Source: Escherichia phage vB_EcoM-P3322. From it: a stretch of 64,000 bases of DNA. Positions 2,949-62,305 of the stretch are shown in pieces. The stretch's first letter is position 1. Each line of letters starts with the position of its first letter. Location of the stretch: sequence record PV191315.1; one strand, written 5' to 3'. The notes beneath the pieces are model-generated. The model did not search any database, was not told the origin of the DNA, and saw only the letters and a list, made by a program, of their open reading frames with translations. The translations under genes and the position numbers were made by a program.

Positions 2949-2973
2949 CTACCTCTCTTGTTAATGTTCATAC

Positions 2974-3001
2974 ATGATACCTGAAAATAATTTCAGATCA
3001 A
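2974..3001 (-). promoter_or_regulatory. candidate sigma70-type promoter for leftward block (TTGATC-N16-TATCAT on minus strand)
   Basis: Hexamers read on minus strand in the divergent intergenic region; near-palindrome CTGAAAATAATTTCAG (2981-2996) sits in the spacer. Confidence 0.3.
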
Positions 3002-3004
3002 GTA

Positions 3005-3032
3005 TTGACATACTTTTTAATCTTGTTAAGAT
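3005..3032 (+). promoter_or_regulatory. candidate sigma70-type promoter (TTGACA-N16-TAAGAT)
   Basis: Consensus -35 at 3005-3010, -10 at 3027-3032, about 30 nt before the first plus-strand gene. Confidence 0.4.
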
Positions 3033-3062
3033 CAACTCCTACCAAACAAAAGGAGAAAACAA

Positions 3063-3506: not shown

Positions 3507-3652
3507 TCTACAAAAACAAGTTCACTGGTTGTCTCCGTAAATTTATCAATAAGAAAGGGTATGTTTCTCTTGACAAGGGTGTTACGTGGGTGCAAAATGG
3601 CACTTCAGAACAACTGATCAAGGCTTTACCTTACTATGAGGAGGTTTTATGA
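3503..3652 (+). CDS. small hypothetical protein (49 aa)
   Basis: Not in track; ATG 3503 overlaps upstream stop (ATGA) and its stop overlaps next start; MIYKNKFTGCLRKFINKKGYVSLDKGVTWVQNGTSEQLIKALPYYEEVL. Confidence 0.4.
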   Translation: MIYKNKFTGCLRKFINKKGYVSLDKGVTWVQNGTSEQLIKALPYYEEVL

Positions 3653-4428: not shown

Positions 4429-4431
4429 GTG

Positions 4432-4460
4432 TTGACTTTTTTCAAAAAATATGCTACCCT
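4432..4460 (+). promoter_or_regulatory. possible promoter (TTGACT -35 with weak -10); shares 15-nt motif AAAATAAGTGTTGAC with 17354-17368
   Basis: Good -35 but only weak -10 candidates; lies at the start of a 175-nt structured intergenic region. Confidence 0.25.
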
Positions 4461-4604
4461 AACCCCGAAGGGTCGAGCGATAGCGAGTATAGATTATGTA
4501 ATAGATTAATCTCTATCGTTAGATGTTCGAAGAACAGAGATTTAAGTACTTGTTCTTATCGGTAGATGATCGTAAGATCAAGAACAATAATAGGAGAGTG
4601 TGTT

Positions 4605-5068: not shown

Positions 5069-5090
5069 GACTAATCTGACAAAGAGTTAC

Positions 5091-5120
5091 TTGACATGTG
5101 CAAAGCTCTTTGTGTAGAAT
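5091..5120 (+). promoter_or_regulatory. candidate sigma70-type promoter (TTGACA-N18-TAGAAT)
   Basis: Consensus hexamers 30 nt upstream of 5151; flanked by inverted repeat ACAAAGAG...CTCTTTGT. Confidence 0.4.
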
Positions 5121-5150
5121 AAAGATTCACTTACTAAGGAGATTTTATAA

Positions 5151-5348
5151 ATGGCTACAAAGAAACAGAAAATGAAATGTCTTACTCTCACTGAACTGGG
5201 TCAAGCTTCCAACTGCGTTACTGTTGGTAAGATTTATTCTACAGTTCTTGATAAAGACAACAACAGTTTTACTTTCAAAGATGATAACGGAAACCCTCAA
5301 GTTGGAATCTACCCTTCCTGTGCTTTTGGTACTTGGGAAAAAGTGTAA
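5151..5348 (+). CDS. hypothetical protein
   Basis: Track ORF 65 aa; SD AAGGAG. Confidence 0.5.
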   Translation: MATKKQKMKCLTLTELGQASNCVTVGKIYSTVLDKDNNSFTFKDDNGNPQVGIYPSCAFGTWEKV

Positions 5349-5391
5349 CTAATTAGAGGGTATACTTGTAAACAAGATTAAGGAGGCATTT

Positions 5392-5565
5392 ATGGGAGAT
5401 AAACAAAGTAACATCCGTTACGCGCTTTATGGAAGAATGGGTGCAGATTGTGAATGGATGCTTCTGTCGCAACGTATACCCTCTTACAAAGAGGCTCTTG
5501 AAAAAAGAGACTATTACAAACAAACATGGCGTTTTGTCATTTGTAAACACTATTTGGAGGCGTGA
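5392..5565 (+). CDS. small Cys-containing hypothetical protein (57 aa)
   Basis: Not in track; SD AAGGAGG 5 nt before ATG 5392; stop overlaps next start; preferred over alternative-frame track ORF 5429..5653. Confidence 0.4.
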   Translation: MGDKQSNIRYALYGRMGADCEWMLLSQRIPSYKEALEKRDYYKQTWRFVICKHYLEA

Positions 5566-10002: not shown

Positions 10003-10556
10003 ACACAGGTGTGATTGCCGAAGCCATCCAGAGTTATGGACGCTTTGCTGAAATGTTAGATGTTCCTTATTTAGTAGATGCAGATATTTTGGCATTCACA
10101 CTGCCACCTGGCAAAGAAGATGCTCCTTTGGGGCATCCTAATGGGAAGTTTTATGTTGCCAGTGCCGAGCAATCATTCTTGCAAATGGAAAAGGATGGCT
10201 ACGAGTTTATCGCTGGTCATCCCTACATGGCCCTGACACCATGTTACCGCACAGAGGAAGTGTTGGATGATTCTCACTTCAACATCTTCTTGAAGCTGGA
10301 GTTGATTGAGTTCTATCCCAGCTTTGGTGAAGTGAAAGAGTATGCCGAAGAAATGCGATACTTCTTCTGGACCTACTACAAAGTCCAAACAAGAATTGTA
10401 GAAACAGAAATAGGGCTTGACGTGGAAGACATGAATGGTTTAGAATTAGGGTCATTCGGAACAAGATTGTCCCCACAAGGTCATCCATATATTTATGCAA
10501 CAGCCATAGCCGAACCTCGTGCATCTATGGCAATTAACAGGAGGAATCATGATTAA
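9999..10556 (+). CDS. hypothetical protein
   Basis: Track ORF 185 aa; ATGA overlap. Confidence 0.5.
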   Translation: MNTGVIAEAIQSYGRFAEMLDVPYLVDADILAFTLPPGKEDAPLGHPNGKFYVASAEQSFLQMEKDGYEFIAGHPYMALTPCYRTEEVLDDSHFNIFLKLELIEFYPSFGEVKEYAEEMRYFFWTYYKVQTRIVETEIGLDVEDMNGLELGSFGTRLSPQGHPYIYATAIAEPRASMAINRRNHD

Positions 10557-11937
10557 TAAATTTGCCCGTAAACAGGAAGTTGCTGAAGCAGCACGTCGCG
10601 CTGGTGTGTATGACAAATTGTGTGAAGGTATTGTGAAGGTGTATGGCTGGGAGGGAGAAGATGATCCAACCTGTTCAGGTGATTTTGCAATGAACGATAT
10701 GACCTTCCCATATATTTCCTACAATGCCTCCACTGGTGAAATAAACGGTGTAACCAGCACCAGTGTTGATCGTTATCCAGACGCAGAACAAACCACAGGA
10801 GGTTACATGTTAGATCTGATTCTTAAGAAATCAGGGTTATTGGGAATCGAAGACGTTTTCGTAGATGCAGATAGTTTATCATTAAGAGATGTTGTTAAAC
10901 TACTGGTAGACTTTAGATTTGCAACAGGTAAAAGCTTCTGGAAGCCAGAAGATGCTGAACGTTTGAAGACAATCGACCCAAGTATGTATGAACTGCCACA
11001 ATATAAAGATAAACAATTCCGCAAGGTTATCTTCTTTGATCGTCAAGCAGGCTTAGATGCAATGCATATTGAAGTTGGGGATTTACCACGCCCACACTCT
11101 GCTGCTACTGGTGATCGCGGCCTTGTAGAAGTCACGGCCCAAGAATTTAAAAATATGTTTGCTGCGAAATACGATGAAGCTGCGCCTGTGCCAAGTATTG
11201 AGGAGCAAGAGGAAGAACAGTTTGTAGCGGAAGATACTGCATTTGAATATCTGCCGAACACAGGTGTTATGCCTTCAGAAGATTTCGTGCAGGTTCGCTT
11301 CAACAATGGTCAAACAGATGTTGCTAAGGGAACAGTATTCACTTGGAATATCGACAATCTGGAAGAGTGGGCGATTAAAGAATACTTCATTCTCCCGCGC
11401 ACGGCAAAATACAACTATAATAATGGTGGACACCGCCCTTGTGGTGGTCACGTAGAAGTTCTCTTTCGTGACGGAACTACGGATAGTGGATCGGCTACGC
11501 ATTTCACTTGGGGTCATGTTGGATATGATCGGGATATTGTTGGTTGGCTTCCAACTAACAACCCTAAACCACGTTACCGTAAGCCTCGTAAGAAGCCGCC
11601 AGTAGGTAAGAAGAGTGTCGTTCGTGTCCTTTACACTACACAGCAGACATACACATTTAAAAATGTGGTAGACGTGCAAGTGACCGAGGAGCGAGTTTAT
11701 ATCCAATATGATCGTGAAGTTACAGAGGGTATTAAAGAATCGGTTACTACCGAAATTGAAAATAAGCTTGTTATGGCAATCATTGTTGAAGAAAGTAAAG
11801 TAGAGAACGGTAAAGCCTACACTGTTCGTGATAGCTTCTTGCGTAACATTGATGGAACTTGGGATTATAATGGACACGATGGGACCGCTGTAAAGAACGG
11901 TAAGATCATGGGAAGACAATTCCTCTCCAAACGATAA
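10549..11937 (+). CDS. hypothetical protein (462 aa)
   Basis: Track ORF 10519..11937; start moved to ATG 10549 (MINKFARK) after AGGAGGAATC; followed by strong terminator. Confidence 0.55.
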   Translation: MINKFARKQEVAEAARRAGVYDKLCEGIVKVYGWEGEDDPTCSGDFAMNDMTFPYISYNASTGEINGVTSTSVDRYPDAEQTTGGYMLDLILKKSGLLGIEDVFVDADSLSLRDVVKLLVDFRFATGKSFWKPEDAERLKTIDPSMYELPQYKDKQFRKVIFFDRQAGLDAMHIEVGDLPRPHSAATGDRGLVEVTAQEFKNMFAAKYDEAAPVPSIEEQEEEQFVAEDTAFEYLPNTGVMPSEDFVQVRFNNGQTDVAKGTVFTWNIDNLEEWAIKEYFILPRTAKYNYNNGGHRPCGGHVEVLFRDGTTDSGSATHFTWGHVGYDRDIVGWLPTNNPKPRYRKPRKKPPVGKKSVVRVLYTTQQTYTFKNVVDVQVTEERVYIQYDREVTEGIKESVTTEIENKLVMAIIVEESKVENGKAYTVRDSFLRNIDGTWDYNGHDGTAVKNGKIMGRQFLSKR

Positions 11938-11943
11938 AACTTA

Positions 11944-11966
11944 AAGGCGCACTTTGCGCCTTTTTT
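11944..11966 (+). terminator. rho-independent terminator
   Basis: Stem AAGGCGCA / TGCGCCTT with 3-nt loop, followed by TTTTTT. Confidence 0.6.
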
Positions 11967-12006
11967 GATTTTCCTCAAAGCTTTTTTCGGTTGGAAGAGG
12001 TAGAAT
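11965..12006 (+). promoter_or_regulatory. nrdDG promoter with FNR-like box TTGAT-N4-CTCAA and -10 TAGAAT
   Basis: Box 11965-11978 (one mismatch to TTGAT-N4-ATCAA) centred about 41.5 nt upstream of the predicted start downstream of -10 (12001-12006); no good -35. Confidence 0.35.
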
Positions 12007-12037
12007 AATAGTTCTACTCACAAAATAAGGATTAATA

Positions 12038-13864
12038 ATGAAAGATTTGTACCAAGATGTTTTTTCTTTTTTAGATCGCACTTCAGAAACATACACTAGA
12101 GAGAATGCAAACAAACCTTCCCACCTCGTTAACACGCATAGGGATCTCTTGGCGGGGATTTTAAGCAAACATATGGCAATGACACAGATACTGCCAAAAA
12201 ACTTGTCAGAATGGCATACAGAAGGTTTTGGACATATTCACGACTTGGATTATCTGCTCTCTCCTCTTACAAACTGTTGTCTTGTTAATTATCAAGATAT
12301 GTTAGAAAATGGTTTTAAGATCGGTGCTGCACAGATAGAAAAACCAAAATCTATTGGAGTAGCTACCACAGTGCTAACTCAAATCATCCAAGCTGTAGCA
12401 TCGAGCCAGTATGGTGGACAGACTTGTGCGCATATTGACGAGGGATTAAAACAATACGTAGAAAAAAGCTACAACAAAATCTTTAATAATCTCAGCAAAA
12501 ATTATCGTGGTCCTAATACAGAGGACTTAGAGAAAAGGGCGATGGAAGTGGTGGACAGTCTTGTTTATGACGCAATGCAAACACTTCTGTATCAAGTTAA
12601 TACCTTGATGAGTGTGAATGGTCAATCACCATTCATCACTATCAGCCTCGGCTTGGACACCTCTGTTTTTGGACGAATGATCACTAAGAACTATTTAAAG
12701 GTTCATACAGGAGGTCTTGGGAAGGATCGCGTGACCCCAGTATTCCCGAAAGTCGTGTTCTTCCTGAAAGACGGGGTGAATATGAAACCGGGTGACCCGA
12801 ATTACGATCTCAAGCAACTGGCAATGGAATGTTGTGCAGAAAGGATTTACCCTGATTTCATCTCTGTTCCACTGAACATGGAAGTCACAGGATCTTCAGA
12901 TGGCAAGGTTACAAGCATGGGTTGCAGAAGCTTCCTTTCTCACTATGCCACCGAACAAGGAGAAAAATACGATGGACGATTCAACCTTGGAGTAGTTTCT
13001 ATCAACTTACCTCTGATCGCTGCGGAAGCGAGAAGTAAAGGAGAATCTTTCACCGATCTTCTTAATAAACATATGGAGATAGCCTACGATGCTCACATGC
13101 TACGTGTAAACCGTATCAGACATACCAAAGCATCTGAAAACCCTATTCTTTTCATGGAAGGGGCTTTAGCTCGTTTAAATGCCAACGATGAAATTGGTGT
13201 TTTGTTTGAAGGTGGTTATGCTTCTATTAGTATTGGTTATGTAGGTCTTGCCGAAGCTTTGGAAATCCTTTATCCAGAAGAAAAAGATAAAAAGGAACTT
13301 GGTAAAAACATTCTGCAACATATGAAAGATGTGTGTGCTGTGTTTAAAGAACGATCTAATTTGGCGTTTAGTCTCTATGGAACTCCAGCAGAATCTTTGT
13401 GCTATAAGTTTGCAACAGCTTTAAATGAAAAATACCCAGGTTTGGTAGAAAGAGACTATCTTACTAACTCTTTTCATCAACCTGTGTGGTTGGTAACAAA
13501 CCCTTTTGAAAAATGGGATTATGAAGCAGGTTTTGCACAGATTAGTAATGGTGGTAACATAAGTTATGTCGAAACACCAAACTTAAAGAATAACTTAGAA
13601 GCTTTGGAAACTTTAGTAGACTACGCTTATGAACATATTCACTATTTTGGTATTAATCAGCCCGTGGATCAATGCTTTAAGTGTGGTTTTCATGGGGAAT
13701 TTAAGGCAACGGCTAAAGGGTTTGAGTGTCCTGATTGTGGCAACCATGAAGAAGAAACTATTTCTGTAGTTAGACGTGTATCAGGGTATCTTTCTGCCCC
13801 TAATTCACGGCCTTATAACAAAGGTAAAATGCAGGAAGTTTTGCAAAGGGAGAAACATTTTTGA
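12038..13864 (+). CDS. nrdD: anaerobic ribonucleoside-triphosphate reductase (class III)
   Basis: 608 aa; C-terminal zinc ribbon CFKCGFHGEF...CPDCGNHEE followed by glycyl-radical-type RVSGYLS; next gene is a radical-SAM activase. Confidence 0.8.
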   Translation: MKDLYQDVFSFLDRTSETYTRENANKPSHLVNTHRDLLAGILSKHMAMTQILPKNLSEWHTEGFGHIHDLDYLLSPLTNCCLVNYQDMLENGFKIGAAQIEKPKSIGVATTVLTQIIQAVASSQYGGQTCAHIDEGLKQYVEKSYNKIFNNLSKNYRGPNTEDLEKRAMEVVDSLVYDAMQTLLYQVNTLMSVNGQSPFITISLGLDTSVFGRMITKNYLKVHTGGLGKDRVTPVFPKVVFFLKDGVNMKPGDPNYDLKQLAMECCAERIYPDFISVPLNMEVTGSSDGKVTSMGCRSFLSHYATEQGEKYDGRFNLGVVSINLPLIAAEARSKGESFTDLLNKHMEIAYDAHMLRVNRIRHTKASENPILFMEGALARLNANDEIGVLFEGGYASISIGYVGLAEALEILYPEEKDKKELGKNILQHMKDVCAVFKERSNLAFSLYGTPAESLCYKFATALNEKYPGLVERDYLTNSFHQPVWLVTNPFEKWDYEAGFAQISNGGNISYVETPNLKNNLEALETLVDYAYEHIHYFGINQPVDQCFKCGFHGEFKATAKGFECPDCGNHEEETISVVRRVSGYLSAPNSRPYNKGKMQEVLQREKHF

Positions 13865-14331
13865 ATTTTGCAGGATACGAACCTGTAGATCTTATTAATG
13901 GTGAGGGAGTTAGGTGCTCCCTCTGGGTTAGTGGTTGTAGCCACGGTTGTCGTGGCTGTTTTAACCAAAAAGCCTGGTCTTATTCTTATGGGAAACCGTT
14001 TACTCACGAAAATGTAGAGCAAGTTTTAAAAGATTTGTCAAGACCGTTTGTAAAAGGTTTAACAATTTTAGGAGGAGAGCCATTAGATCCACAGAATATT
14101 TACAATGTTAAAAACCTTATAGAAAAGGTTAGAGACGTTTATGGGTCAAGCAAAGATATAATGGTGTATACAGGGTATACTTTTGAGGAAGTGCCTTTGT
14201 ATATTAAAAATCTTGTTGACATTATTGTAGACGGAAAGTATGAAATAAACAATCCAACTGCAAAACCTTTCAGAGGGTCAGATAATCAAAGATTATGGAC
14301 CAAAACGGCAAGTGGTTGGCAATCAGATTAA
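13861..14331 (+). CDS. nrdG: anaerobic ribonucleotide reductase activating protein (radical SAM)
   Basis: 156 aa; CSHGCRGCFN cluster near N-terminus; TTG start overlapping nrdD stop. Confidence 0.7.
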   Translation: MNFAGYEPVDLINGEGVRCSLWVSGCSHGCRGCFNQKAWSYSYGKPFTHENVEQVLKDLSRPFVKGLTILGGEPLDPQNIYNVKNLIEKVRDVYGSSKDIMVYTGYTFEEVPLYIKNLVDIIVDGKYEINNPTAKPFRGSDNQRLWTKTASGWQSD

Positions 14332-15158: not shown

Positions 15159-15815
15159 ATGACTATTAAACATATCTCTTTTGATGTATGGAACACACTG
15201 ATCACAGCAAACTCCAATTACGCAGACATGCGAGCCTGGACTATCGCAAAATATGGAGATATTACGGAAGTGGAAGCAAGAGCAGCTTATAAAAAGATCA
15301 AAAAGGAACTGGATAATGCAGCACTTCAAGGCAAAGCCGAGTGTGCAGCATATGCTTGGGAAAGACTTGGTTCTGAACTTGGGATAACGCCTTGGAAGTC
15401 TGCAAAGCTTCGTTTCGAGTGTGAACAGTGGTTCCTTAAGTTTCCACCACACGTAGCCGTGGATCTGCCGATGTACTTGCTGTATCTTTCGGGGCGTTAT
15501 GATTTGAGTATTAAGAGCAATACCAACTTCATATCAGGGGATATCCTGCGTCGTGCTTGTAAGTTTGATAGTTGGAATTGTTTTGAGTTCACCCATTTCT
15601 CGGATGAAGCTTTACTTTGTAAACCAGATCCGCGATTCTTTGCTCGCACGCTCACGTATTCTCCGATCCCTCTGTTAGGGCACGAAGTGTTGCACGTAGG
15701 CGATAGTGAAGAATATGATGGAAAATGTGTTGACTTAGGATTTAACTTCTGTCATATTAAGAACCCTAACGACTTACTAGAGAAACTTAAAAGAGGAGAA
15801 ATTGTAAATGCGTAA
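15159..15815 (+). CDS. HAD-superfamily phosphatase-like hydrolase
   Basis: Motif I-like ISFDVWNTLI near N-terminus and motif IV-like HVGDSEEYD. Confidence 0.5.
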   Translation: MTIKHISFDVWNTLITANSNYADMRAWTIAKYGDITEVEARAAYKKIKKELDNAALQGKAECAAYAWERLGSELGITPWKSAKLRFECEQWFLKFPPHVAVDLPMYLLYLSGRYDLSIKSNTNFISGDILRRACKFDSWNCFEFTHFSDEALLCKPDPRFFARTLTYSPIPLLGHEVLHVGDSEEYDGKCVDLGFNFCHIKNPNDLLEKLKRGEIVNA

Positions 15816-16635
15816 TCAAACTCAAATTTTTGCAAATAAATTTGATGACCTGGAAACTGCTACTTTTGATATCCAAGATTATTCAAAATTGAAATTTGGT
15901 AGTAACCAAGCTGCGCGTCGTATGGGTAAAGAATTGGCACTTCAGTTTTTTGCTCAAGTGGCAATGAAACATATTGGGGAACAATTTGTTATCATTCCTT
16001 CTCCTTATAACCATGTGCATAATGCTGCAACAATGATGACAGATCATTTTATTAATTACTTTAATATGTTGCAATCACAATATGATCAAGGTCGTTCAGC
16101 AGAACTGGACATTATTCATCGTAAAGTTAGCTATATCAACGATTATGGTTTCTTGGATAAAGCTAGTCGTAAGAAACTTATTGATGGGGATACATTCTAC
16201 TGCAACAAAGAATTCTGGGGTGATAAGAAGCTTGTATTCATTGATGATGTAAATATCACTGGAACGCATGAAGACAAACTGATTGAGATCCTTGATGAAA
16301 ATCAAGTTAAAAATGATGTTTACTTCCTGTATTTTGCAAAATACGAAGGTAATCAAGCAGATACCGAAGCTAAACTGAATTTTAACTACATTAATACACC
16401 AGAAGCGTTTGTTAAAATGATTAATGAAGAACGTGATGCACAGTGTCTTGTTCGTCCTATTAAGTATCTTATGGGCCAAAATCATGAAGACTTCAAAATC
16501 ATTCTTAGCCAATTGCCACATTACTATGTAGAGCAACTTTTCTTTGGATGCTTGGGAGAAGGTTACAACCGAATTTCAAAGTATGCTGAAAACTTTGAAT
16601 TCTTGGATCGTTACACAAAACAACACATTCTGTAA
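15808..16635 (+). CDS. phosphoribosyltransferase-like protein
   Basis: PRPP-binding-loop-like KLVFIDDVNITGTHED; overlaps HAD gene by 8 nt. Confidence 0.45.
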   Translation: MRNQTQIFANKFDDLETATFDIQDYSKLKFGSNQAARRMGKELALQFFAQVAMKHIGEQFVIIPSPYNHVHNAATMMTDHFINYFNMLQSQYDQGRSAELDIIHRKVSYINDYGFLDKASRKKLIDGDTFYCNKEFWGDKKLVFIDDVNITGTHEDKLIEILDENQVKNDVYFLYFAKYEGNQADTEAKLNFNYINTPEAFVKMINEERDAQCLVRPIKYLMGQNHEDFKIILSQLPHYYVEQLFFGCLGEGYNRISKYAENFEFLDRYTKQHIL

Positions 16636-16648
16636 TAAGGAGCTAAAA

Positions 16649-17122
16649 ATGCTTAAAATTAAAACAGGTAATCTTATTGATGCCGCTAAAGCAGGTGAAG
16701 TAACTGTTATTGCTCATTGTTGCAACTGTATGTGTAATATGGGGGCAGGTATTGCCCCACAAATCAAACGAGCATTTCCTTACGCATATGCAGCAGACTT
16801 AGACACAATGGCTGGTGATCAAAGTAAACTAGGTTGTTTTAGTTTAGGGGTGCCAGACGAACAATCCGACCCTTTGGTATATAATCTATACGGGCAATAC
16901 CGTTACGGATACAATGCTAAAGGTCGTCAGTTGGACTATGATGCACTTTACGATGCACTAATAGCTATGGCTAACGATTTGCTTCTCCGTGACCAAAAAT
17001 GTAAGATCGGCTTACCTATGATTGGCGCTGGATATGCTGGAGGTAATTGGGCTATCATCCAAGTGATGATTGAAGAAACTTTAGTAAAAACAGGTCACGA
17101 TGTGACTATTTATAAACTTTAA
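16649..17122 (+). CDS. macro-domain protein (ADP-ribose binding/processing)
   Basis: Track ORF 16544..17122, start moved to ATG 16649 after AAGGAG; VIAHCCNCMCNMGAGIAPQIKRAFP aligns with the macro-domain Gly-rich loop, second loop LPMIGAGYAGG. Confidence 0.5.
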   Translation: MLKIKTGNLIDAAKAGEVTVIAHCCNCMCNMGAGIAPQIKRAFPYAYAADLDTMAGDQSKLGCFSLGVPDEQSDPLVYNLYGQYRYGYNAKGRQLDYDALYDALIAMANDLLLRDQKCKIGLPMIGAGYAGGNWAIIQVMIEETLVKTGHDVTIYKL

Positions 17123-17134
17123 GAGGAGATTAGT

Positions 17135-17356
17135 ATGGGTGTTTTTGCAGGTATTGTTGCAGTGGTAAGCTTTTTTGTTATTGCTTTTATGCTTAGTTTG
17201 ATTCCAGCTTGGTTACTGTTGCTGGCTTACAACTATGTTGCTGAAGTTATGGGTCATGCAGATATCACTGTCCCAGTAACCTTCTGGACCGTGGTTTGTG
17301 TTTCGTTTATTCTGGCTGTATTACGAGGAATCTTTTCCTCTCATTCAACAAAATAA
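17135..17356 (+). CDS. small membrane protein (2 TM)
   Basis: Track ORF 73 aa; hydrophobic helices; SD AGGAGA. Confidence 0.5.
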   Translation: MGVFAGIVAVVSFFVIAFMLSLIPAWLLLLAYNYVAEVMGHADITVPVTFWTVVCVSFILAVLRGIFSSHSTK

Positions 17357-17359
17357 GTG

Positions 17360-17387
17360 TTGACATAGTTCTTAAAAAGAGTAAGAT
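17360..17387 (+). promoter_or_regulatory. candidate sigma70-type promoter (TTGACA-N16-TAAGAT) preceded by motif AAAATAAGTG
   Basis: Consensus hexamers in the 80-nt gap before the TerC-like gene. Confidence 0.4.
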
Positions 17388-17399
17388 GTATCACATGAA

Positions 17400-17418
17400 G
17401 CGGGGAATAGTTCCCCGC
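17400..17418 (+). promoter_or_regulatory. 5' leader stem-loop GCGGGGAA-TAG-TTCCCCGC
   Basis: Perfect 8-bp GC-rich stem between promoter and RBS, no T-run after it. Confidence 0.3.
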
Positions 17419-17435
17419 AAAGAGAGGAGAAAAGA

Positions 17436-18410
17436 ATGCAACTTGGTTTCCCAATTATTGATGTAGTTGTTTTAGTTGGTATTTTAGCATTGTCTATTGG
17501 TATTGATTTCTTTGGTCACAAAGAAAATAAAGAAATTTCATTCAAATCCGCAGTTGGTTGGTCGATCTTTTGGATTGGTGTATCATTAGCTTATTATGGT
17601 TTTGTATACTTCCAACATGGTGCCGATTTTGCTAACTTGTTTTTAAGTGGATATGTGTTGGAAAAATCTTTGTCGGTAGATAACTTGGTAGTATTTGTAG
17701 CAGTATTCGCAAGTTTTGGTATTAAAAGCACACACTTGCAGCACAAGATTCTACTTTGGGGTATTGCAGGTGCGATTGTCTTCCGAGGTGTGTTTGTAGC
17801 AGTAGGCACTTACTTGTTAAGTTTGGGCTGGTATGTTAATATCTTCTTCGGTGCGGTCATCCTTTTCTGTGCAGCTAAAATGGTATTTGCTGGAGATAAT
17901 GACGCAGAAGTTGATTACTCTAAACACTGGGCTACCCGTATTGTTCGTAAACTGTTCCCTGTATCTAATAAAATGGATGGGGAGAAGTTCTTCACAATCG
18001 AAAATGGTGTTCGTGTAGCAACTCCAGCTTTGGTTTGCGTATTCGTGATGGAAATGGTGGATGTAATCTTTGCAGTAGATTCGGTTCCAGCGGTGATCGC
18101 AGTGACACAAGAACCCCTGCTTGTATTCTCTTCGATGTTATGTGCAATCTTAGGTCTACGTGCTCTGTTCTTTGTTCTTAGTGTCGCACTGAAGTATCTG
18201 GTTCACTTGGAGAAAGCAGTTATTGTGGTTCTGGTGTTTGTAGGCGTTAAACTGATGTATCACCCGTTTGCAGAAACATTGCATGAGAAAATGAGTTTCC
18301 TGCCAGCACATATTGATCCAACTATTAGTATGTATATCGTGCTTGGTACTTTGGCCCTTGGTGTTATTGCAAGCTTTATCTTCCCTGAAAAAGAAGAAGC
18401 TACTGTTTAA
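17436..18410 (+). CDS. TerC-family integral membrane protein
   Basis: 324 aa polytopic membrane protein; SLSVDNLVVFVAVF motif and paired acidic/His TM segments fit TerC/Alx pattern. Confidence 0.55.
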   Translation: MQLGFPIIDVVVLVGILALSIGIDFFGHKENKEISFKSAVGWSIFWIGVSLAYYGFVYFQHGADFANLFLSGYVLEKSLSVDNLVVFVAVFASFGIKSTHLQHKILLWGIAGAIVFRGVFVAVGTYLLSLGWYVNIFFGAVILFCAAKMVFAGDNDAEVDYSKHWATRIVRKLFPVSNKMDGEKFFTIENGVRVATPALVCVFVMEMVDVIFAVDSVPAVIAVTQEPLLVFSSMLCAILGLRALFFVLSVALKYLVHLEKAVIVVLVFVGVKLMYHPFAETLHEKMSFLPAHIDPTISMYIVLGTLALGVIASFIFPEKEEATV

Positions 18411-18416
18411 TAAATG

Positions 18417-18440
18417 AGCCTCCTTCGGGAGGCTATTTTA
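18417..18440 (+). terminator. rho-independent terminator
   Basis: AGCCTCC-TTCG-GGAGGCT hairpin followed by ATTTTA. Confidence 0.55.
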
Positions 18441-18452
18441 TAGGAGAGACTT

Positions 18453-18803
18453 ATGAGTAATTTTGATGAAATTCAAGAACTTGTTTGGGATTTATCTGGT
18501 GATGTGGATTACATTTCAGATTATCTTTCAAAAGTTTACCCTGGGGTAAGCGTTATGATTGTGACCAAAGATCCAATTAATTTGCCTCCTAACGTGGTAG
18601 CTTGTTGTGGAAGTGGTTCAGGAGAAGTAGAGCCTGTATCTCGTTGGGAATTAACTAAAGCTGTTTCAAAACGAAATGGTGAAGTTTTGAATATTGATAT
18701 CGAACAAATATGGACTTCTCCAGCAGCCAAATGGAATGATCCTAATGGTTGGGATTTGTTCTTCTGGGATAATGAAACTGATGATGAGGTATTTTTAAAA
18801 TGA
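18453..18803 (+). CDS. hypothetical protein
   Basis: Track ORF 116 aa. Confidence 0.5.
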   Translation: MSNFDEIQELVWDLSGDVDYISDYLSKVYPGVSVMIVTKDPINLPPNVVACCGSGSGEVEPVSRWELTKAVSKRNGEVLNIDIEQIWTSPAAKWNDPNGWDLFFWDNETDDEVFLK

Positions 18804-19045
18804 AATACTTGTTGGTTGTGTTTGAAAATATTTGTTTTGCAATAGGGTTGTTTGTTGTAATTTTTGTATTGACAAGCGTAATCAACGGCAGTAAAGTGAG
18901 TTTATACCGAGATGGAGAGCAACTCTATTGCTTCTCTGGAGATTTCAAACACAGATGTATTAATAGTCAAAATGAGGAAAGCAAATATGAAAAAACTAGC
19001 CCTGATTTTAATTGGTTGTATCTTTTTAACAGCTTGCGAGGATGA
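18800..19045 (+). CDS. small protein with N-terminal TM helix; overlaps next gene in another frame
   Basis: Track ORF 81 aa; ATGA overlap with upstream gene; TM FAIGLFVVIFVLTSVI; reality uncertain because of 59-nt overlap. Confidence 0.3.
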   Translation: MKYLLVVFENICFAIGLFVVIFVLTSVINGSKVSLYRDGEQLYCFSGDFKHRCINSQNEESKYEKTSPDFNWLYLFNSLRG

Positions 19046-19424
19046 AACAAATCCTGCACAATACCAACAACCTCCTCAACAATACACTCAACAAGGATCT
19101 GACGGAGATACAACTATTATCAACAATGGTGGCGGTTCTAGTAGTAGTGGTGTTGGTGAGTTTGCTACAGGTATGTTGTTAGGGCATATGATGAGTGGCA
19201 GTAGTAATCGTAGCAGTGGTGATTATAACGATAACAGAACGATTATTAATAAGCATTATAATACACCTAAACCGAAAACTAATTTTTATGGTAAGCCTAA
19301 ACAAGAGATAAAAACTTATGAAAAGCCGAGACAAACTTTTAAAACAAATAGTAGCTATACAACTCGTAAATCTTACAATAGCCCTTTAAGTAAAAAGAGT
19401 TCATCTCGTAGCAAGCGACGTTAA
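18987..19424 (+). CDS. lipoprotein, low-complexity Q/S/N-rich with basic C-terminus
   Basis: Track ORF 18912..19424; start moved to ATG 18987 after GAGGAAAG; lipobox LTAC in MKKLALILIGCIFLTACEDE. Confidence 0.5.
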   Translation: MKKLALILIGCIFLTACEDETNPAQYQQPPQQYTQQGSDGDTTIINNGGGSSSSGVGEFATGMLLGHMMSGSSNRSSGDYNDNRTIINKHYNTPKPKTNFYGKPKQEIKTYEKPRQTFKTNSSYTTRKSYNSPLSKKSSSRSKRR

Positions 19425-19438
19425 TAAGGAGAAAAACA

Positions 19439-20032
19439 ATGACAATTTCTATTCGTACTTCCATCGTAGGTGTTAAAAGGTTGCCTAATGCTTTGCAAAT
19501 CACACGCGCTTTGAGGGATACATTCTCTGCTGTGGACGAGCATAAGATGCTTGATAATCTTTCAAATTGGCCCTATTTCCATTATTTTAAAAATGAAGAT
19601 GACGAGTTTATAGACGCTGTTTCTTATGGTTATGATTTCGGTAAGGAGGTTTCTGCTGAAGAATTTGTAGCTATGGTGTTCCCAAACGGTTTGCCTACTC
19701 GCAGTAAACGTAAAAAAGGACCAAAAAACAAGAAACGTGCTACTAATAAAGCTACCATTTTCTTTACTGATGGCACACAATATACGATTAAAGATTTTGA
19801 AGAGGTATCTTATACAGCAGGTGGGAATCTTTCTTTCTACACCATCAAAAAACAAAACTCTACGTTCAGCCATGTTTCTAACATGATTGAAATGTTAGTA
19901 GAAGATATTGAAAGCGTGGCTGTGTTAGGTATGCATAAAAGCTTTTTAATTACAAATATTTCAGATTTCAGTGCAAGTTTATCTGGCCCTGATTTTGAAG
20001 CCACGACCACGCATTTCGCTTTTAAGGTGTAA
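19439..20032 (+). CDS. hypothetical protein
   Basis: Track ORF 197 aa; SD AAGGAGAAAAAC. Confidence 0.55.
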   Translation: MTISIRTSIVGVKRLPNALQITRALRDTFSAVDEHKMLDNLSNWPYFHYFKNEDDEFIDAVSYGYDFGKEVSAEEFVAMVFPNGLPTRSKRKKGPKNKKRATNKATIFFTDGTQYTIKDFEEVSYTAGGNLSFYTIKKQNSTFSHVSNMIEMLVEDIESVAVLGMHKSFLITNISDFSASLSGPDFEATTTHFAFKV

Positions 20033-20035
20033 GTT

Positions 20036-20626
20036 ATGCATACCGAGAGAGACTTGCAACTCTTGTGGTGGGAAGTGATGCAGGAAATAAAAGAAGATTT
20101 TCCTGCTTACTACAACATGTTACGTGAAGCAGGATATAAAGCTTGTGTTAGAAACAAAGTGAATAACTCTTTCGGTTGGTGCAACTACCGAGATAAAATT
20201 GTTGTTGTAAATTGGCACTTGCATAAGAACTCCACAAGAGATATGATCGTGGATACAATGAAGCACGAAATTGCTCATGCTATTGATGGTTGTATGGGTA
20301 AGTTTAGTAGGCACGGTGCTCATTGGCAAAAACTGGCAGCAGAATTAGGGGCTAATCCTAAAGCCACTTCCAAAGAGCCGTTGAACCACGAATATAAATA
20401 TGTTCTTGTTCTGGTAGATAGGTTTGCGACAAGATGTGTTAGAGGTTATAATCGTAAACCTAATCGCATGTACCCAGGTAAGCAACCTAATATGTGGTTG
20501 AAATCAGATAAAGAAGGGACCGAAGGAAAATTATGGTTGTATAAATGGGACGATTGGGTTAAAGTAGCTAAAGAGTACGGTGTTTCACCATATATAAGAG
20601 ATGCAGAAGAGGAGAATGAAGAATGA
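20036..20626 (+). CDS. SprT-like zinc metalloprotease-domain protein
   Basis: HExxH in TMKHEIAHAI with downstream HGAHW and upstream GWCNYRDKIVVVNWHL, matching SprT-like layout. Confidence 0.5.
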   Translation: MHTERDLQLLWWEVMQEIKEDFPAYYNMLREAGYKACVRNKVNNSFGWCNYRDKIVVVNWHLHKNSTRDMIVDTMKHEIAHAIDGCMGKFSRHGAHWQKLAAELGANPKATSKEPLNHEYKYVLVLVDRFATRCVRGYNRKPNRMYPGKQPNMWLKSDKEGTEGKLWLYKWDDWVKVAKEYGVSPYIRDAEEENEE

Positions 20627-21735
20627 CAAGTCCATTTTTAAAAGCAGCTACTGGTGGTCAGAAGAAGCCTGAAATGAGCGTATTTGCTGCAACAACAGAT
20701 GCAAGTAAATCTGTATTCGCTCCAAGCGTGTTAGATGCCAGTCCTGTTTATGCACCAGCGGCACCGCAAGAAGTTCCAGTTTTGCCTTCTATGACCCGAC
20801 AAGAGATCGAAGAGATTGGGGCAGAGGCAGGAACAACCTTGCGTTCCTTGAATGCCGAGGTATTAAAACATCAACGTAGTAATCAAGGCGATCAGATGAG
20901 TGAACGACTCACAGCTTTGATTAAACAGGCAAAACAACTTGATCCAAACTCTATTAAACAAAGCAAGGGTATTACTAAACTCATTAAAAAAGTTATGGGT
21001 ATGAAAGAAGATCTGTTTGGGGAGTTTGATAATGTTAATAACCGTATTGAAGAGTTGGTAAAGAACCTTCAAATGGATATTCGCAAAGAAGAAGATTCCT
21101 TGGTATATCTTGAAAAGCTACATCAAGCTATTGGACAATATGCTGCAAGTTTGAACCGAGATATGCAGCTTCTAACAGCAACCTATGAAAAAGAAGAACA
21201 AGCTTTGGCTGCTCTTCCAGAAGATGCAGTAGAACAGCGACAAGTGATCCGAGATACTTTGGATCTTCTGGAGATTCGTATTGCAGATTTAAAAGCATTG
21301 CGCCTACTGTGTGTCCAAATGGGACCGCGTGTACAAGGTATGCAAAAAGTTTCTGCAAGCTTAATGCGATCTGCGCGTAACATAGTAAATAATGTTATTC
21401 CTGCTTACTCTGCTAACTTCTCAATGTATATCGAGAGCTTACGTCAAATGAAAGCAGCAGAGACGCAGAATAACGTTCTTGATGAATTTAACCTGGCAAT
21501 TAAACTGGGTAGCGATCTTGCCACACAGAATCAGATCGAAGCAGCAGCACTGGCTAACCGTCAAGTGTTGGATATTGAAACTCTGCGTCACGATCAGGAA
21601 AACTTGGTTAAGATGTTGGAAGAAACTAACCGCATCAATACGGAAGCCCGTGCTGCTCGTGTTGATTATATTAATGAAGTTCAATCTCTGGAAGACGGGA
21701 TGGTAGCTGCTGTGAAACGAGGGCTTGGTAAATGA
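20623..21735 (+). CDS. TelA-like (toxic anion resistance family) coiled-coil protein, tentative
   Basis: 370 aa helical, Gln/Leu-rich with heptad-like stretches; call by size, composition and Ter-gene context only. Confidence 0.35.
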   Translation: MTSPFLKAATGGQKKPEMSVFAATTDASKSVFAPSVLDASPVYAPAAPQEVPVLPSMTRQEIEEIGAEAGTTLRSLNAEVLKHQRSNQGDQMSERLTALIKQAKQLDPNSIKQSKGITKLIKKVMGMKEDLFGEFDNVNNRIEELVKNLQMDIRKEEDSLVYLEKLHQAIGQYAASLNRDMQLLTATYEKEEQALAALPEDAVEQRQVIRDTLDLLEIRIADLKALRLLCVQMGPRVQGMQKVSASLMRSARNIVNNVIPAYSANFSMYIESLRQMKAAETQNNVLDEFNLAIKLGSDLATQNQIEAAALANRQVLDIETLRHDQENLVKMLEETNRINTEARAARVDYINEVQSLEDGMVAAVKRGLGK

Positions 21736-21929
21736 GAATCCGTATCTATATAATTGATGAAGACATTGGTGTCCGTTATGATGACGAAAAACGATTCGCA
21801 CCGATGGGAGGTATATATCCCCCAAGTGTTCTAGCAGTTTGTCGTGATTGTTATATTTATGAAGGTTGTCGTAACTTCCGTAAATTCGAACTCCTTGCAG
21901 ATATTGACTTCAATGAGGAGGAGGAGTAA
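21732..21929 (+). CDS. hypothetical protein
   Basis: Track ORF 65 aa; ATGA overlap. Confidence 0.45.
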   Translation: MRIRIYIIDEDIGVRYDDEKRFAPMGGIYPPSVLAVCRDCYIYEGCRNFRKFELLADIDFNEEEE

Positions 21930-22099
21930 TGAAAATATTACGAGTGAATATTGAAACTGCTTGGTGTGGATGCAATGAGGTTGTGGATATCGAAATTGAA
22001 GATGATATGTCTCAAGAGGATATAGAAGATCTTGCGCACGAAACCTTTCAGGATTATTGTAATTACGGGTTCCATATTTTAGAGGAGGAAGAAGATGTT
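21929..22099 (+). CDS. small acidic hypothetical protein (56 aa)
   Basis: Not in track; TAATG overlap upstream, SD GAGGAGGAG, stop overlaps next start; MKILRVNIETAWCGCNEVVDIEIEDD... Confidence 0.4.
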
Positions 22100-22298
22100 T
22101 AACTACGATAACGATCCTAATATTATCCAGTTAACCCGACAAGAACTGATCACAATCATTGAAGATGCTTTTATTGATGGCTGGAATACACAAGATAATG
22201 ACTGGGGTGGACCCGAAGCTTTTCTGGAACATCATAAAACTTATGGAGACTCTTGTGAAACCACTGTAGCTCTTGATAATCTGAAGGAGGGTTTGTAA
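22095..22298 (+). CDS. hypothetical protein
   Basis: Track ORF 67 aa; SD GAGGAGG. Confidence 0.5.
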   Translation: MFNYDNDPNIIQLTRQELITIIEDAFIDGWNTQDNDWGGPEAFLEHHKTYGDSCETTVALDNLKEGL

Positions 22299-22861
22299 TG
22301 GGTTGTTTTAGCTTTTTGTGCAAAGAATCGGGCAAAGCTGCCCTTTCTACTTCTTTCGACGGATCACCTTGCTACCTCTTTCTTTTGAAGGACGGTGTTG
22401 TTATTGAAGAGATGTATGGCAACTATGATAGTTATGGTTGTGTTTTCTCTGGAAAGGAGGATGAAAACGGCGTTCGTGAACGGTTCGAATGGGCTATGGA
22501 TTGGGGTAAGGTTTGTGATTTGATGCATTCCTCAAATCCAAGGGACGGTATCGCTATGGTGCTGGAAGAGTACTTTACAGGTGAAATCCCTACAGAACAA
22601 TCTGACGGAGATCCTAACCAAGGTTGGGGTGATGGTGAAGAAGATCCAGATTGTTTTTTCAGCACAGAAAAGAATAAGTTTAAACGTGTTGACAACCCTT
22701 ATCACAAAGTGCATAATACTCTCATTGAAACAGAAGATGACAAGATGGAAATTGAAGAAGATGATCCTCTTGTAACACTTCCTATAAGTGAGTTACAAAA
22801 GATCACTAAGGAAGCTTACGATTTGGGCTTCAAAATTGGTAGAGGAGGTATGCGTGTTTAG
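22298..22861 (+). CDS. hypothetical protein
   Basis: Track ORF 187 aa. Confidence 0.5.
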   Translation: MGCFSFLCKESGKAALSTSFDGSPCYLFLLKDGVVIEEMYGNYDSYGCVFSGKEDENGVRERFEWAMDWGKVCDLMHSSNPRDGIAMVLEEYFTGEIPTEQSDGDPNQGWGDGEEDPDCFFSTEKNKFKRVDNPYHKVHNTLIETEDDKMEIEEDDPLVTLPISELQKITKEAYDLGFKIGRGGMRV

Positions 22862-23132
22862 ATTCAATATTCAAGAAGAAAAAAGTCAGGATTTACCTAT
22901 TGCTTTCGAAGATCTTGACGTAGGGGCCACATTCATGTATTATGATGCCTATGAAGACGCAGGGTTGGATACCTACCGTAACTTGGTGTTCATTAAAAAT
23001 TCCACAAACAGTGCGATTTGTATTAATGGATCACTAGCACAACGAGGCTATACTCATTGCATCCCACCAGATACAAATATGGTGGAAGTAGATTTAGAAG
23101 TTACCAATATTACACTTAAGAAGGAGAAATAA
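22854..23132 (+). CDS. small protein, paralog A (of 24154..24423)
   Basis: Track ORF 22788..23132; start moved to GTG 22854 after AGAGGAGG; shares DLDVG(A/D)TF and EV(D/E)L.VT.ITLK with paralog B. Confidence 0.45.
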   Translation: MFRFNIQEEKSQDLPIAFEDLDVGATFMYYDAYEDAGLDTYRNLVFIKNSTNSAICINGSLAQRGYTHCIPPDTNMVEVDLEVTNITLKKEK

Positions 23133-23133
23133 T

Positions 23134-23928
23134 ATGTCCGAGAAAATCAGCCTGAAAAAACGTCAAGAAAACCTTGCTTTCTCTCTGAAAAAGAATAAGA
23201 ACCTGAACGAAGGTAAGATTGTTCTTCGTGTAGCATGTGCTCTAGATATTTCTGGTAGTATGCATGGTCTATATTCTAGTGGGGTAGTGAGTGATTTTGT
23301 AGGTAAACTGCTTCCTTTTGGTATGCTGTTCGACGATAATCAACAAATTGATATGTGGGCCTTCAATACGAGTTCCCAAGAGCTTACTCCAGCAACAGCA
23401 GATGTTTACGATGACTATGTTGGTAAATGTATGCGTAATGTTCGTATCGGAGGTGGAACAAATTACGCCCCTGTAATGGCGGATATCTACGATGAGTATT
23501 TTGGCACTGTTACTAAATATATTACCACTAAACAAGTGGTACAAGAGGAGGCTCCAAAGAAAGGTTTCTTTAATCGTCTACTTGGTAAAACTGAAACAGT
23601 ATCTGTAGAGCGTGAAAAGGTCGTAGCTGTATCTGAACCAGGTGCTGACGTTACCCCTGGTGTTGTATTCTTCCAAACGGATGGTGAGAATGGTGATCCT
23701 AGTGCTGTTCGTCGTCTTATCGAAGAGAATAAGAATAAACCTATTTATTGGTTCATGGTTGGCGTTGGTAATGAGAAGTTTGGCTTCCTGAAAGAACTGG
23801 CAAATGCTTATGATAATGTTGGTTTTATTGGTATTAAAGATTTAGACTTGACAGATTCAGAGCTTTATGACAAACTCTTATCTGAAGAGTTCGGAGAGTG
23901 GGTTGTTAAAGTAGGTGCTAAAAAATGA
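23134..23928 (+). CDS. von Willebrand factor A domain protein, TerY-like
   Basis: MIDAS-type LDISGSMHG after hydrophobic strand VLRVACA; N-terminus EKISLKK echoes TerD N-terminal motif. Confidence 0.5.
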   Translation: MSEKISLKKRQENLAFSLKKNKNLNEGKIVLRVACALDISGSMHGLYSSGVVSDFVGKLLPFGMLFDDNQQIDMWAFNTSSQELTPATADVYDDYVGKCMRNVRIGGGTNYAPVMADIYDEYFGTVTKYITTKQVVQEEAPKKGFFNRLLGKTETVSVEREKVVAVSEPGADVTPGVVFFQTDGENGDPSAVRRLIEENKNKPIYWFMVGVGNEKFGFLKELANAYDNVGFIGIKDLDLTDSELYDKLLSEEFGEWVVKVGAKK

Positions 23929-25041: not shown

Positions 25042-25059
25042 TAATTAACAAATGATTTT

Positions 25060-25079
25060 GAGGGGGAGAAATCCCCCTC
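25060..25079 (+). terminator. hairpin terminator candidate (GAGGGGGA-GAAA-TCCCCCTC)
   Basis: 8-bp GC stem with tetraloop right after TerD gene; weak T-tract; same stem recurs at 42912-42930. Confidence 0.35.
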
Positions 25080-25108
25080 TTGCAATAAAGCCTCTATCGT
25101 GTTATACT
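25080..25108 (+). promoter_or_regulatory. candidate sigma70-type promoter (TTGCAA-N17-TATACT)
   Basis: Near-consensus hexamers 30 nt upstream of endolysin-like gene. Confidence 0.45.
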
Positions 25109-25140
25109 AGAAATTCGTTAACTTAAAAAGGAGGCAAAAT

Positions 25141-31580: not shown

Positions 31581-31599
31581 GGGCTTCGGCCCTTTTATT
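31581..31599 (+). terminator. rho-independent terminator
   Basis: GGGCTTCGGCCC hairpin followed by TTTTATT directly after primase-helicase stop. Confidence 0.65.
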
Positions 31600-31610
31600 A
31601 AAAATACCTG

Positions 31611-31639
31611 TTGACAACTTTACGGAAGAGACTTATACT
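31611..31639 (+). promoter_or_regulatory. strong candidate sigma70-type promoter (TTGACA-N17-TATACT)
   Basis: Near-consensus hexamers with optimal spacing, about 30 nt before 31673. Confidence 0.55.
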
Positions 31640-31672
31640 TGTCTCATCAACCAAACAAGAGGAGAAGTAAAA

Positions 31673-36728: not shown

Positions 36729-36735
36729 TTAAAGC

Positions 36736-36765
36736 TTGACAATATTAAACATTTTATGATAGGAT
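36736..36765 (+). promoter_or_regulatory. possible promoter (TTGACA-N18-TAGGAT)
   Basis: Good -35, mediocre -10; predicted start almost at the ATG of 36774 and no SD, so the downstream gene may be leaderless. Confidence 0.25.
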
Positions 36766-36773
36766 AGCATTCA

Positions 36774-62179: not shown

Positions 62180-62238
62180 GATAACCTCGTGGTAATGATA
62201 ATGCCAAAAGGAAGATGCAAGATCTTCCCATATTGATT

Positions 62239-62268
62239 ATTGTAACACATATAGAAACTTCGTGTCAA
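62239..62268 (-). promoter_or_regulatory. candidate sigma70-type promoter inside tail module (TTGACA-N18-TACAAT on minus strand)
   Basis: Hexamers read on minus strand just downstream of the tape-measure terminator; inverted repeat GGAAGATCTTGCATCTTCC in the leader. Confidence 0.35.
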
Positions 62269-62276
62269 GGGAAACG

Positions 62277-62298
62277 AAAAAACCCCGCCGAAGCGAGG
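62277..62298 (-). terminator. rho-independent terminator after tape-measure gene (minus strand)
   Basis: On minus strand CCUCGC-UUCG-GCGGGG (one G-U pair) followed by UUUUUU. Confidence 0.5.
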
Positions 62299-62305
62299 TA
62301 TTTTA

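Follow-up and report, generated by a model that had tools for sequence, protein, structure and literature searches.

Class II FNR promoters are textbook knowledge. In 19 of 23 FNR-activated promoters, the site is centred at -41.5 +/- 4, and validated activated sites occur at -40.5, -41.5 and -42.5 (Myers 2013, PMC3688515), within a validated range that extends from -40.5 to -45.5. The E. coli class II promoters of narG, dmsA, nirB, nrfA, ydfZ, pflB and fnrS contain a 14-bp site of the TTGAT-N4-ATCAA type centred between -40.5 and -42.5, and the same placement is predicted upstream of nrdD in the window (the whole stretch of 64,000 nucleotides of Escherichia phage vB_EcoM-P3322 analysed here). 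In the E. coli set as in the phage, the site overlaps a weak or absent -35 element and stands upstream of a sigma-70 -10 element. Unlike the members of this set, the phage promoter is carried by a virulent phage, directly adjoins an intrinsic terminator and is predicted from the sequence.

The class III ribonucleotide reductases (RNRs) are highly oxygen-sensitive (PMC10425943). In E. coli, the nrdDG operon displays two FNR sites, site 1 at -33.5 and site 2 (TTGAGctacATCAA) at -64.5, the latter being necessary and sufficient for anaerobic activation (PMC10425943). The earlier note on this DNA had pointed out that host anaerobic RNR operons are activated by FNR, and for nrdDG this is indeed stated in PMC10425943 and PMC2892513. 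In the K-12 sequence (L226), the FNR sites correspond to positions 405-418 and 436-449, and the -10 element TAAAAT to positions 463-468; about 178 nt of leader precede the coding sequence. NrdR boxes are paired 16-bp palindromes, 15-16 bp apart, that overlap the core promoter (PMC12176259). The pattern CWANATNTWG recovers both host NrdR boxes, at positions 449 and 480 of L226; the spacing between the host boxes is given as 15 bp, and elsewhere they are said to be 31 bp apart.

The nrdDG operons of E. coli and Salmonella comprise the same genes as the phage operon, and the control, putative in the phage, is of FNR type in both. On the other strand the phage box reads TTGAGgaaaATCAA, and its ten specified bases are those of host site 2 (TTGAGctacATCAA). 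Whereas the host operon has two FNR sites 31 bp apart (-64.5 and -33.5), the phage has a single one at about -41.5, and no second FNR box with two mismatches or fewer is present in the 300 nt upstream of phage nrdD. Likewise, the two NrdR boxes and the leader of about 178 nt of the host contrast with a leader of about 25 nt and no NrdR boxes in the phage: the pattern CWANATNTWG is absent from the window promoter even with one mismatch allowed, and no pair of it was detected in any of the phage promoters. Given these differences in architecture (single class II site, no NrdR boxes, short leader), the promoter of the phage does not reproduce that of the host. The apparent loss of the NrdR boxes suggests that the phages keep the oxygen control and escape repression by the dNTP pool.

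In cyanophages, pstS and phoA are reportedly controlled by the host regulator PhoB, with experimental support. Phage nrdDG would resemble this case, since in both a lytic phage would carry the binding site of a host environmental sensor before a metabolic gene. Unlike FNR, which is a one-component Fe-S oxygen sensor, the sensor of the cyanophage hosts is the phosphate two-component system PhoBR; the hosts and the gene differ too. To our knowledge, virulent phages are usually described with a fixed temporal programme, and few cases are documented where they use a host environment sensor for metabolic genes. In the literature searched, which covered the principal survey of RNR genes in phages as well as the paper on the ICP1 genome, neither FNR sites on nrdD promoters of phages nor FNR-dependent phage gene expression are described, and no transcriptome or reporter data for this phage group were found.

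Organization of the nrdDG promoter region

The 3.9 kb around the nrdD promoter are matched at 95-99% identity by about 65 genomes of Phapecoctavirus, the genus of the phage analysed here, which comprises phAPEC8-like E. coli myophages of the Stephanstirmvirinae with genomes of about 150 kb. The features of the region are listed in Table 1. The start codon of nrdG (TTG) and the stop codon of nrdD overlap (TTGA). A ribosome-binding site (RBS) is annotated at the equivalent site in ESCO13. The gene upstream of the promoter, in which a Pfam domain search detected no domain, is context and lies outside the proposed switch, its transcript being ended by the terminator. In PHROGs and in many records, this phrog_15930 gene is labelled "ribonucleotide reductase", a label that may be a propagated guess. 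Its homologues stand before nrdD in phiWec179 and PHB05.

Table 1. Features of the nrdDG region, other promoters of the window and nrdD promoters of distant phages (promoters of the window as -35/spacing/-10; distant promoters as box/spacing/-10; spacings in nt).
Feature	Position	Strand	Description
Upstream gene	10519..11937	+	472 aa; phrog_15930 (PHROG 1.7e-168); from ORF list
Intrinsic terminator	11943..11966	+	9-bp stem, 3-nt loop, T run
FNR-type box	11965..11978	.	TTGATtttcCTCAA; 9/10 specified consensus bases
Spacer, box to -10	11979..12000	+	22 nt; site for a -35 hexamer, none there
-10 hexamer	12001..12006	+	TAGAAT; only usable -10 at the nrdD promoter
Predicted transcription start	12012..12014 (~12013)	+	placed 7 nt past the -10
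RBS	12028..12031	+	AGGA; 6 nt ahead of the nrdD ATG (12038)
nrdD	12038..13864	+	608 aa; class III (anaerobic) ribonucleotide reductase; Pfam NRDD 1.6e-165, Gly_radical 1.8e-27
nrdG	13861..14331	+	radical-SAM activase; Pfam Fer4_12 4.8e-42, Radical_SAM
Promoter	2949-3062		TTGACA/16/TAAGAT
Promoter	3507-3648		TTGACA/17/CAAAAT
Promoter	4429-4565		TTGACT/17/TACCCT
Promoter	5069-5428		TTGACA/18/TAGAAT
Promoter	17357-17435		TTGACA/16/TAAGAT
Promoter	25042-25140		TTGCAA/17/TATACT
Promoter	31581-31672		TTGACA/17/TATACT
Promoter	36729-36773		TTGACA/18/TAGGAT
Promoter	62180-62305	-	TTGACA/17/TACAAT
phiWec179 clade			TTGATcctgAACAA/21/TGgTAAAAT; 68% nt identity
Justusliebigvirus PHB05 and two IMG/VR contigs			TTGACtaagATCAA/22/TAAAAT
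Asteriusvirus 121Q			TTGATatagGTCAA/22/TATAAT
121Q-like jumbo contigs			TTGATcyagRTCAA/23/TGaTATAAT
GAP32, CBB and relatives (jumbo phages)			perfect TTGATctagATCAA/23/TATTAT
Vibrio-phage-like contig (L036), 128 kb			TTGACtaagATCAA/22/TATAAT
Aliivibrio phage HNL01			TTGACctaaATCAA/22/TATAAT
V. cholerae phage ICP1			TTGACacaaGTCAA/22/TATAAT

The sequence through the promoter region is ...TAAAACTTAAAGGCGCACTTTGCGCCTTTTTTGATTTTCCTCAAAGCTTTTTTCGGTTGGAAGAGGTAGAATAATAGTTCTACTCACAAAATAAGGATTAATAATG. The terminator is composed of the stem AAAGGCGCA-ctt-TGCGCCTTT at positions 11943-11963, followed by a T run that extends to position 11966. Its RNA fold has an energy of -12.6 kcal/mol (z = -4.05), it is the top terminator hit within 5-20 kb, and the equivalent hairpin is annotated as a terminator in the ASO2A record. 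The last two T of the terminator are also the first two bases of the FNR-type box, and part of the box is therefore constrained by another function. The earlier note had described this box as FNR-like, with one mismatch and located between the terminator and nrdD, and all its coordinates are correct: TTGATtttcCTCAA has one mismatch to TTGATN4ATCAA and its core TTGA-N6-TCAA is complete. The same note had predicted a centre about 41.5 nt upstream of the start deduced from TAGAAT, in class II activation geometry. The 22-nt spacing indeed puts the box centre (11971.5) at -41.5 relative to the predicted start 12013, and the distance from the box to the only plausible -10 element fits this geometry exactly. 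More generally, the spacings of 21, 22 and 23 nt found in phages correspond to centres at -40.5, -41.5 and -42.5.

At a spacing of 16-18 nt from the -10 element, the best -35 match is of 1/6 (AAAGCT), and a sigma-70 scan called no promoter at the nrdD spacer. The sequences TTGATT, TTGACx and TTGGAA were considered as ordinary -35 elements and were ruled out, no -10 element being present 16-18 nt downstream of any of them. The leader starting at the predicted position 12013 (about 25 nt) is predicted to be unstructured (0 kcal/mol). A search for known RNA families in positions 11600-12400 gave two sub-threshold hits, both driven by the terminator. A 6-bp inverted repeat, GTAGAA-taatag-TTCTAC, extends over positions 12000-12017 across the -10 element and the predicted start; as RNA it folds with -7.5 kcal/mol (z = -2.2). 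At the same place phiWec179 displays a different small repeat, ATAGA-N7-TCTAT. The repeat of the window could be an operator, a 5' stem or nothing.

The nrdD spacer was compared with all intergenic spacers of the plus-strand early block and of the minus-strand late block. In the other spacers, 9/9 recognisable promoters have a near-consensus -35 element at 16-18 nt (TTGACA, TTGACT or TTGCAA; Table 1), and the hexamer TAGAAT is itself found as the -10 element of one of them, TTGACA/18/TAGAAT at positions 5091-5120. The nrdD spacer is the sole one with a -10 but no -35 element, and it is also the sole one with an FNR-type box. The claim that the nrdD promoter has no good -35 element is thus borne out both by the 1/6 match and by the TTGACA-like -35 elements of the nine other promoters. 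In rV5, a class of -35-less promoters is defined by the late motif TGGTAAAATA (PMC3606486). A phage-wide class of this type was considered for the window and rejected: the motif is not enriched, has no exact copy, and nothing similar to it was detected in the late-region intergenic spacers. Since TGGTAAAATA is not enriched, there is no sign of a phage-specific -35-less class that would explain the missing -35 element of nrdD.

FNR-type boxes with one mismatch or none are not enriched in the 64-kb window (7 boxes versus 5.77 +/- 2.07 expected). None of the other six boxes has the gene context of a promoter, and in 5/6 no TAnnnT is found at 21-23 nt on either strand. One of them, TTGATGAAAATCAA at positions 16292-16305, is a perfect FNR consensus within the PRTase (ComF-like) ORF 15808-16635; it is probably due to chance, since no TAnnnT occurs at the class II distance on either strand. 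Another, TTGAATTTCATCAA at positions 18463-18476 of the minus strand, is followed after 22 nt by TAAAAT. It is located at the start of a plus-strand gene, and the pattern was taken as chance because no minus-strand gene follows. The a priori probability of a box at one of the three class II positions in the nrdD region is about 3e-4 (7/64000 x 3). That the nrdD box exceeds chance is decided by the comparative evidence and not by the box count.

Distribution of the layout among phages

In Phapecoctavirus, the 221 nt around the box display 98-100% identity. An alignment of eight genomes of the genus reveals that the half-sites, the 22-nt spacing and the -10 element are invariant. The substitutions concern two positions of the N4 spacer of the box (tttc/ttcc/ttta) and two of the nucleotides that separate the box from the -10 element, and the terminator run differs by one T upstream of the box. 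This conservation has little power, since the upstream gene is conserved to the same degree (98.2-99.6%, versus 98-99% for the intergenic region).

Outside the genus, the layout composed of an FNR box, 21-23 nt, TAnnnT and a poor -35 element was found upstream of nrdD in at least seven further lineages of phages of Enterobacterales and Vibrionaceae (Table 1). The NrdD proteins of the positive lineages range from 85% down to about 30% identity with that of the window, and the flanking DNA is unalignable between the positive groups. The -35 elements are poor in 12/12 representative promoters (1-4/6). The 121Q-like jumbo phages taken together display TTGATnnagRTCAA/22-23/TATAAT. In an alignment of nine jumbo-phage sequences, no more than three blocks are invariant, and the box core is among them. 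The mismatches of the boxes are nearly all located at the inner positions 5 and 10, and the core TTGA-N6-TCAA is kept in every positive lineage except the phiWec179 clade, which has an AACAA half-site; this half-site is present in the strong ydfZ site of E. coli (PMC3688515). The box-to-(-10) spacing varies among lineages between 21 and 23 nt. The hosts of the positive lineages are Escherichia, Salmonella, Klebsiella, Cronobacter, Pectobacterium, Yersinia/Erwinia-type bacteria, Vibrio and Aliivibrio. Enterobacterales and Vibrionaceae are facultative anaerobes.

The significance of the layout was assessed with the core pattern TTGA-N6-TCAA, 21-23 nt, TAnnnT, searched in the 300 nt upstream of nrdD. 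The pattern was recovered at 16/96 loci. As background, the remainder of these loci gave 8 hits over 493 kb when both orientations were counted, which corresponds to 0.0024 expected per 300-nt region. Even if no more than three independent origins among about 20 lineages are assumed, the binomial probability is of the order of 1e-5. Among the best 80 bacterial-genome matches to the phage NrdD profile, the pattern was found in 0/79 Fusobacteria and Firmicutes nrdD loci. The sole positive (L227, JAEZZU010000022.1) is filed as a "Proteobacteria bacterium" metagenome-assembled genome (MAG) and displays a Phapecoctavirus nrdD (92% aa identity) with a promoter identical to that of the window; the contig is of phage origin and ended up in a bacterial MAG through binning.

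These values bear on the explanation by chance, according to which the box is fortuitous and nrdDG is expressed from a weak, constitutive -35-less promoter, independently of FNR and oxygen. This explanation agrees with the box count of the window and with the perfect box at position 16292, in a coding region without promoter context. It also agrees with the environmental contigs L049, L058, L059, L066 and L068, where candidate boxes at about -306 were rejected as coding coincidences: they are really the TTG start and the MKIIK codons of the NrdD ATP-cone. We nevertheless consider it unlikely, because the same box-to-(-10) distance occurs in at least eight lineages (that of the window included) with unalignable flanks, against the low expectation and the negative control loci given above, and because the substitutions within the genus spare the half-sites.

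Several lineages have no such layout. No box was detected at the nrdD loci of T4-like phages, nor upstream of nrdD in GAP52, K440 and qdvp001. The nrdD gene of the T5-like phage Spc35 has a classic TTGACA/17/TATAAT promoter and no box. In rV5-like phages, nrdD overlaps the preceding gene within an operon nrdA-nrdB-trx-nrdD and has neither a promoter of its own nor a box. In GAP52 and Felix O1-like phages, there is merely a hairpin, then the RBS, ahead of nrdD. The Felix O1-like lineage is nevertheless ambiguous: Suspvirus EcSzw-2 displays TTGATatcaAACAA/22/TAGTAT inside the upstream CDS, and the box is degenerate in Felixounavirus (CTGATtttgAACAA). A scan of IMG/VR for TTGATN4ATCAA-N21-23-TATAAT gave at least 120 listed matches, an uninformative sample in no particular order, none of which is beside nrdD.

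The position of the putative insulating hairpin relative to the box differs among the positive lineages. In the phiWec179 clade and the 121Q-like phages it precedes the box, in the GAP32/CBB-like phages (ATACCCC...GGGGTAT) it stands between the box and the -10 element, and in Justusliebigvirus it follows the -10 element, in the leader. In the latter genus (L007, positions 1925-1997; also L002, L003, L013 and L035), the FNR-type promoter and the stop codon of the preceding gene overlap, and the leader hairpin, terminator-like and with a U run, stands directly before the RBS (-19 kcal/mol, z = -4). This hairpin may be an attenuator or a 5' stabiliser; it is awkward for a simple promoter model, which does not explain it.

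A second explanation supposes that there is no functional promoter, that nrdDG is transcribed by read-through of a leaky terminator from the early promoters upstream, and that the -10 element and the box are irrelevant. The hairpin-RBS arrangement of GAP52 and Felix O1-like phages, the promoter-less nrdD of the rV5-like operon (nrdAB) and the hairpin of Justusliebigvirus right before the RBS are in line with it. However, the hairpin of the window is strong (9 bp, T run, -12.6 kcal/mol), TAnnnT is conserved at 21-23 nt from the box in every positive lineage, and read-through leaves the conservation of the box unexplained. This makes it quite unlikely as the explanation, and some read-through could occur alongside an FNR promoter.

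In the jumbo phages (L010, L017-L023, L031 and L039), an invariant block TAAATA(A) lies between the FNR-type promoter and the nrdD ATG, about 25-35 nt before the latter; in most cases (T)CACC comes a few nt after the block. This block may represent a second, phage-specific promoter. One of these sequences, L031, has a perfect box, yet no clear -10 element.

Candidate reader of the box and proposed regulation

Across the boxes found, the half-sites are always TTGA and never GTGA as in CRP-type sites, and several boxes are a perfect FNR consensus. A tblastn search with E. coli FNR detected no homologue in 50,697 phage records, barring one Listeria fragment. Because no FNR homologue is phage-encoded in these records, the parsimonious reader is a host protein that Enterobacterales and Vibrionaceae share. 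The inverted repeat might instead be read by another protein, either CRP or a phage-encoded regulator. The sites of CRP and FNR are related, and most of the genes in these phages have no assigned function, which makes an unrelated DNA-binding protein conceivable. We regard such a reader as very unlikely in view of the invariable TTGA half-sites and the perfect consensus boxes, of the FNR-query search, which also returned no member of the FNR/CRP family, and of the presence of the box in phage families that share little beyond host taxonomy and nrdD.

From the comparative evidence and the contrast with the other promoters of the window, we estimate at roughly three in four the probability that the nrdDG promoter is a class II FNR-activated sigma-70 promoter that gates phage nrdDG on host anoxia, in support of the suggestion of the earlier note that the phage may have put its nrdDG under the oxygen sensing of the host. 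As read from the sequence, the terminator would block read-through from the constitutive, strong early promoters upstream and insulate nrdDG, and with a usable -10 but no -35 element, the host RNA polymerase would initiate poorly alone and need an activator. From established FNR biology and from the pattern of conservation, we infer the following steps. In an anoxic host, dimeric [4Fe-4S]-FNR would bind TTGATtttcCTCAA at about -41.5 and activate transcription through contacts with sigma-70 and the alpha subunits. In air, FNR is monomeric and the operon would stay largely off. NrdD and NrdG would then be made only when the oxygen-sensitive glycyl-radical enzyme can work, and no enzyme that oxygen destroys would be wasted. 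In the phages with the FNR-type layout upstream of nrdD, synthesis of the enzyme is probably restricted to host cells without oxygen.

The opposite effect of FNR was also considered. FNR represses some promoters where its site overlaps core elements (Myers 2013, PMC3688515), and the box of the window overlaps the T run of the terminator; bound FNR could thus turn nrdDG off in anoxia or act as a roadblock at the terminator. Repression is extremely unlikely, given that sites near -41.5 signal activation (19 of 23 activated promoters, as cited above), that the missing -35 element implies the need for an activator, and that switching off an anaerobic enzyme in anoxia would be physiologically senseless.

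We lean slightly towards a broader interpretation of class II FNR activation, in which virulent phages that infect facultative anaerobes and are unrelated to one another (Stephanstirmvirinae, 121Q- and GAP32-like jumbo phages, ICP1 and other Vibrionaceae phages) would each have wired a class III RNR to host FNR through a terminator-insulated class II promoter, shedding the NrdR feedback. If this is true, lytic phages sense the oxygen status of the host and match nucleotide supply to it, which would constitute a general environment-sensing layer in gut and estuarine phages. If FNR gates phage nrdDG, the expression of phage genes depends directly on oxygen in the gut, in sediments and in cholera stool. 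In these settings phAPEC8-like, jumbo and ICP1 phages encounter their hosts, and phage therapy has to be effective there. Since a single 14-bp site is at stake, the prediction is precise and can be tested cheaply. Genetically tractable systems are provided by BASEL-type Phapecoctavirus isolates in E. coli K-12 and by ICP1 in V. cholerae, and T4-, T5- and rV5-like phages are natural comparators without the box.

Two observations concern the neighbourhood of the promoter. Downstream of nrdDG, a ter-like cluster (positions 15808-23928) contains a PRTase (ComF-like), a phosphatase, TerC, TelA and a TerF-like vWA protein. From nrdG to positions 18417-18434, no terminator-like hairpin of comparable strength was called, and some genes of the cluster could therefore be co-transcribed with nrdDG. 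Concerning nrdD itself, its first 1200 nt (12038-13237) display only 86% identity to ASO2A and ESCO13, with a 12-nt length difference, versus 98-99.6% for the upstream gene and the promoter. Judging from these identities, the nrdD gene of the window is a mosaic allele, with ECO340P1 as its closest relative, and recombination has its boundary either at the promoter or directly behind it.
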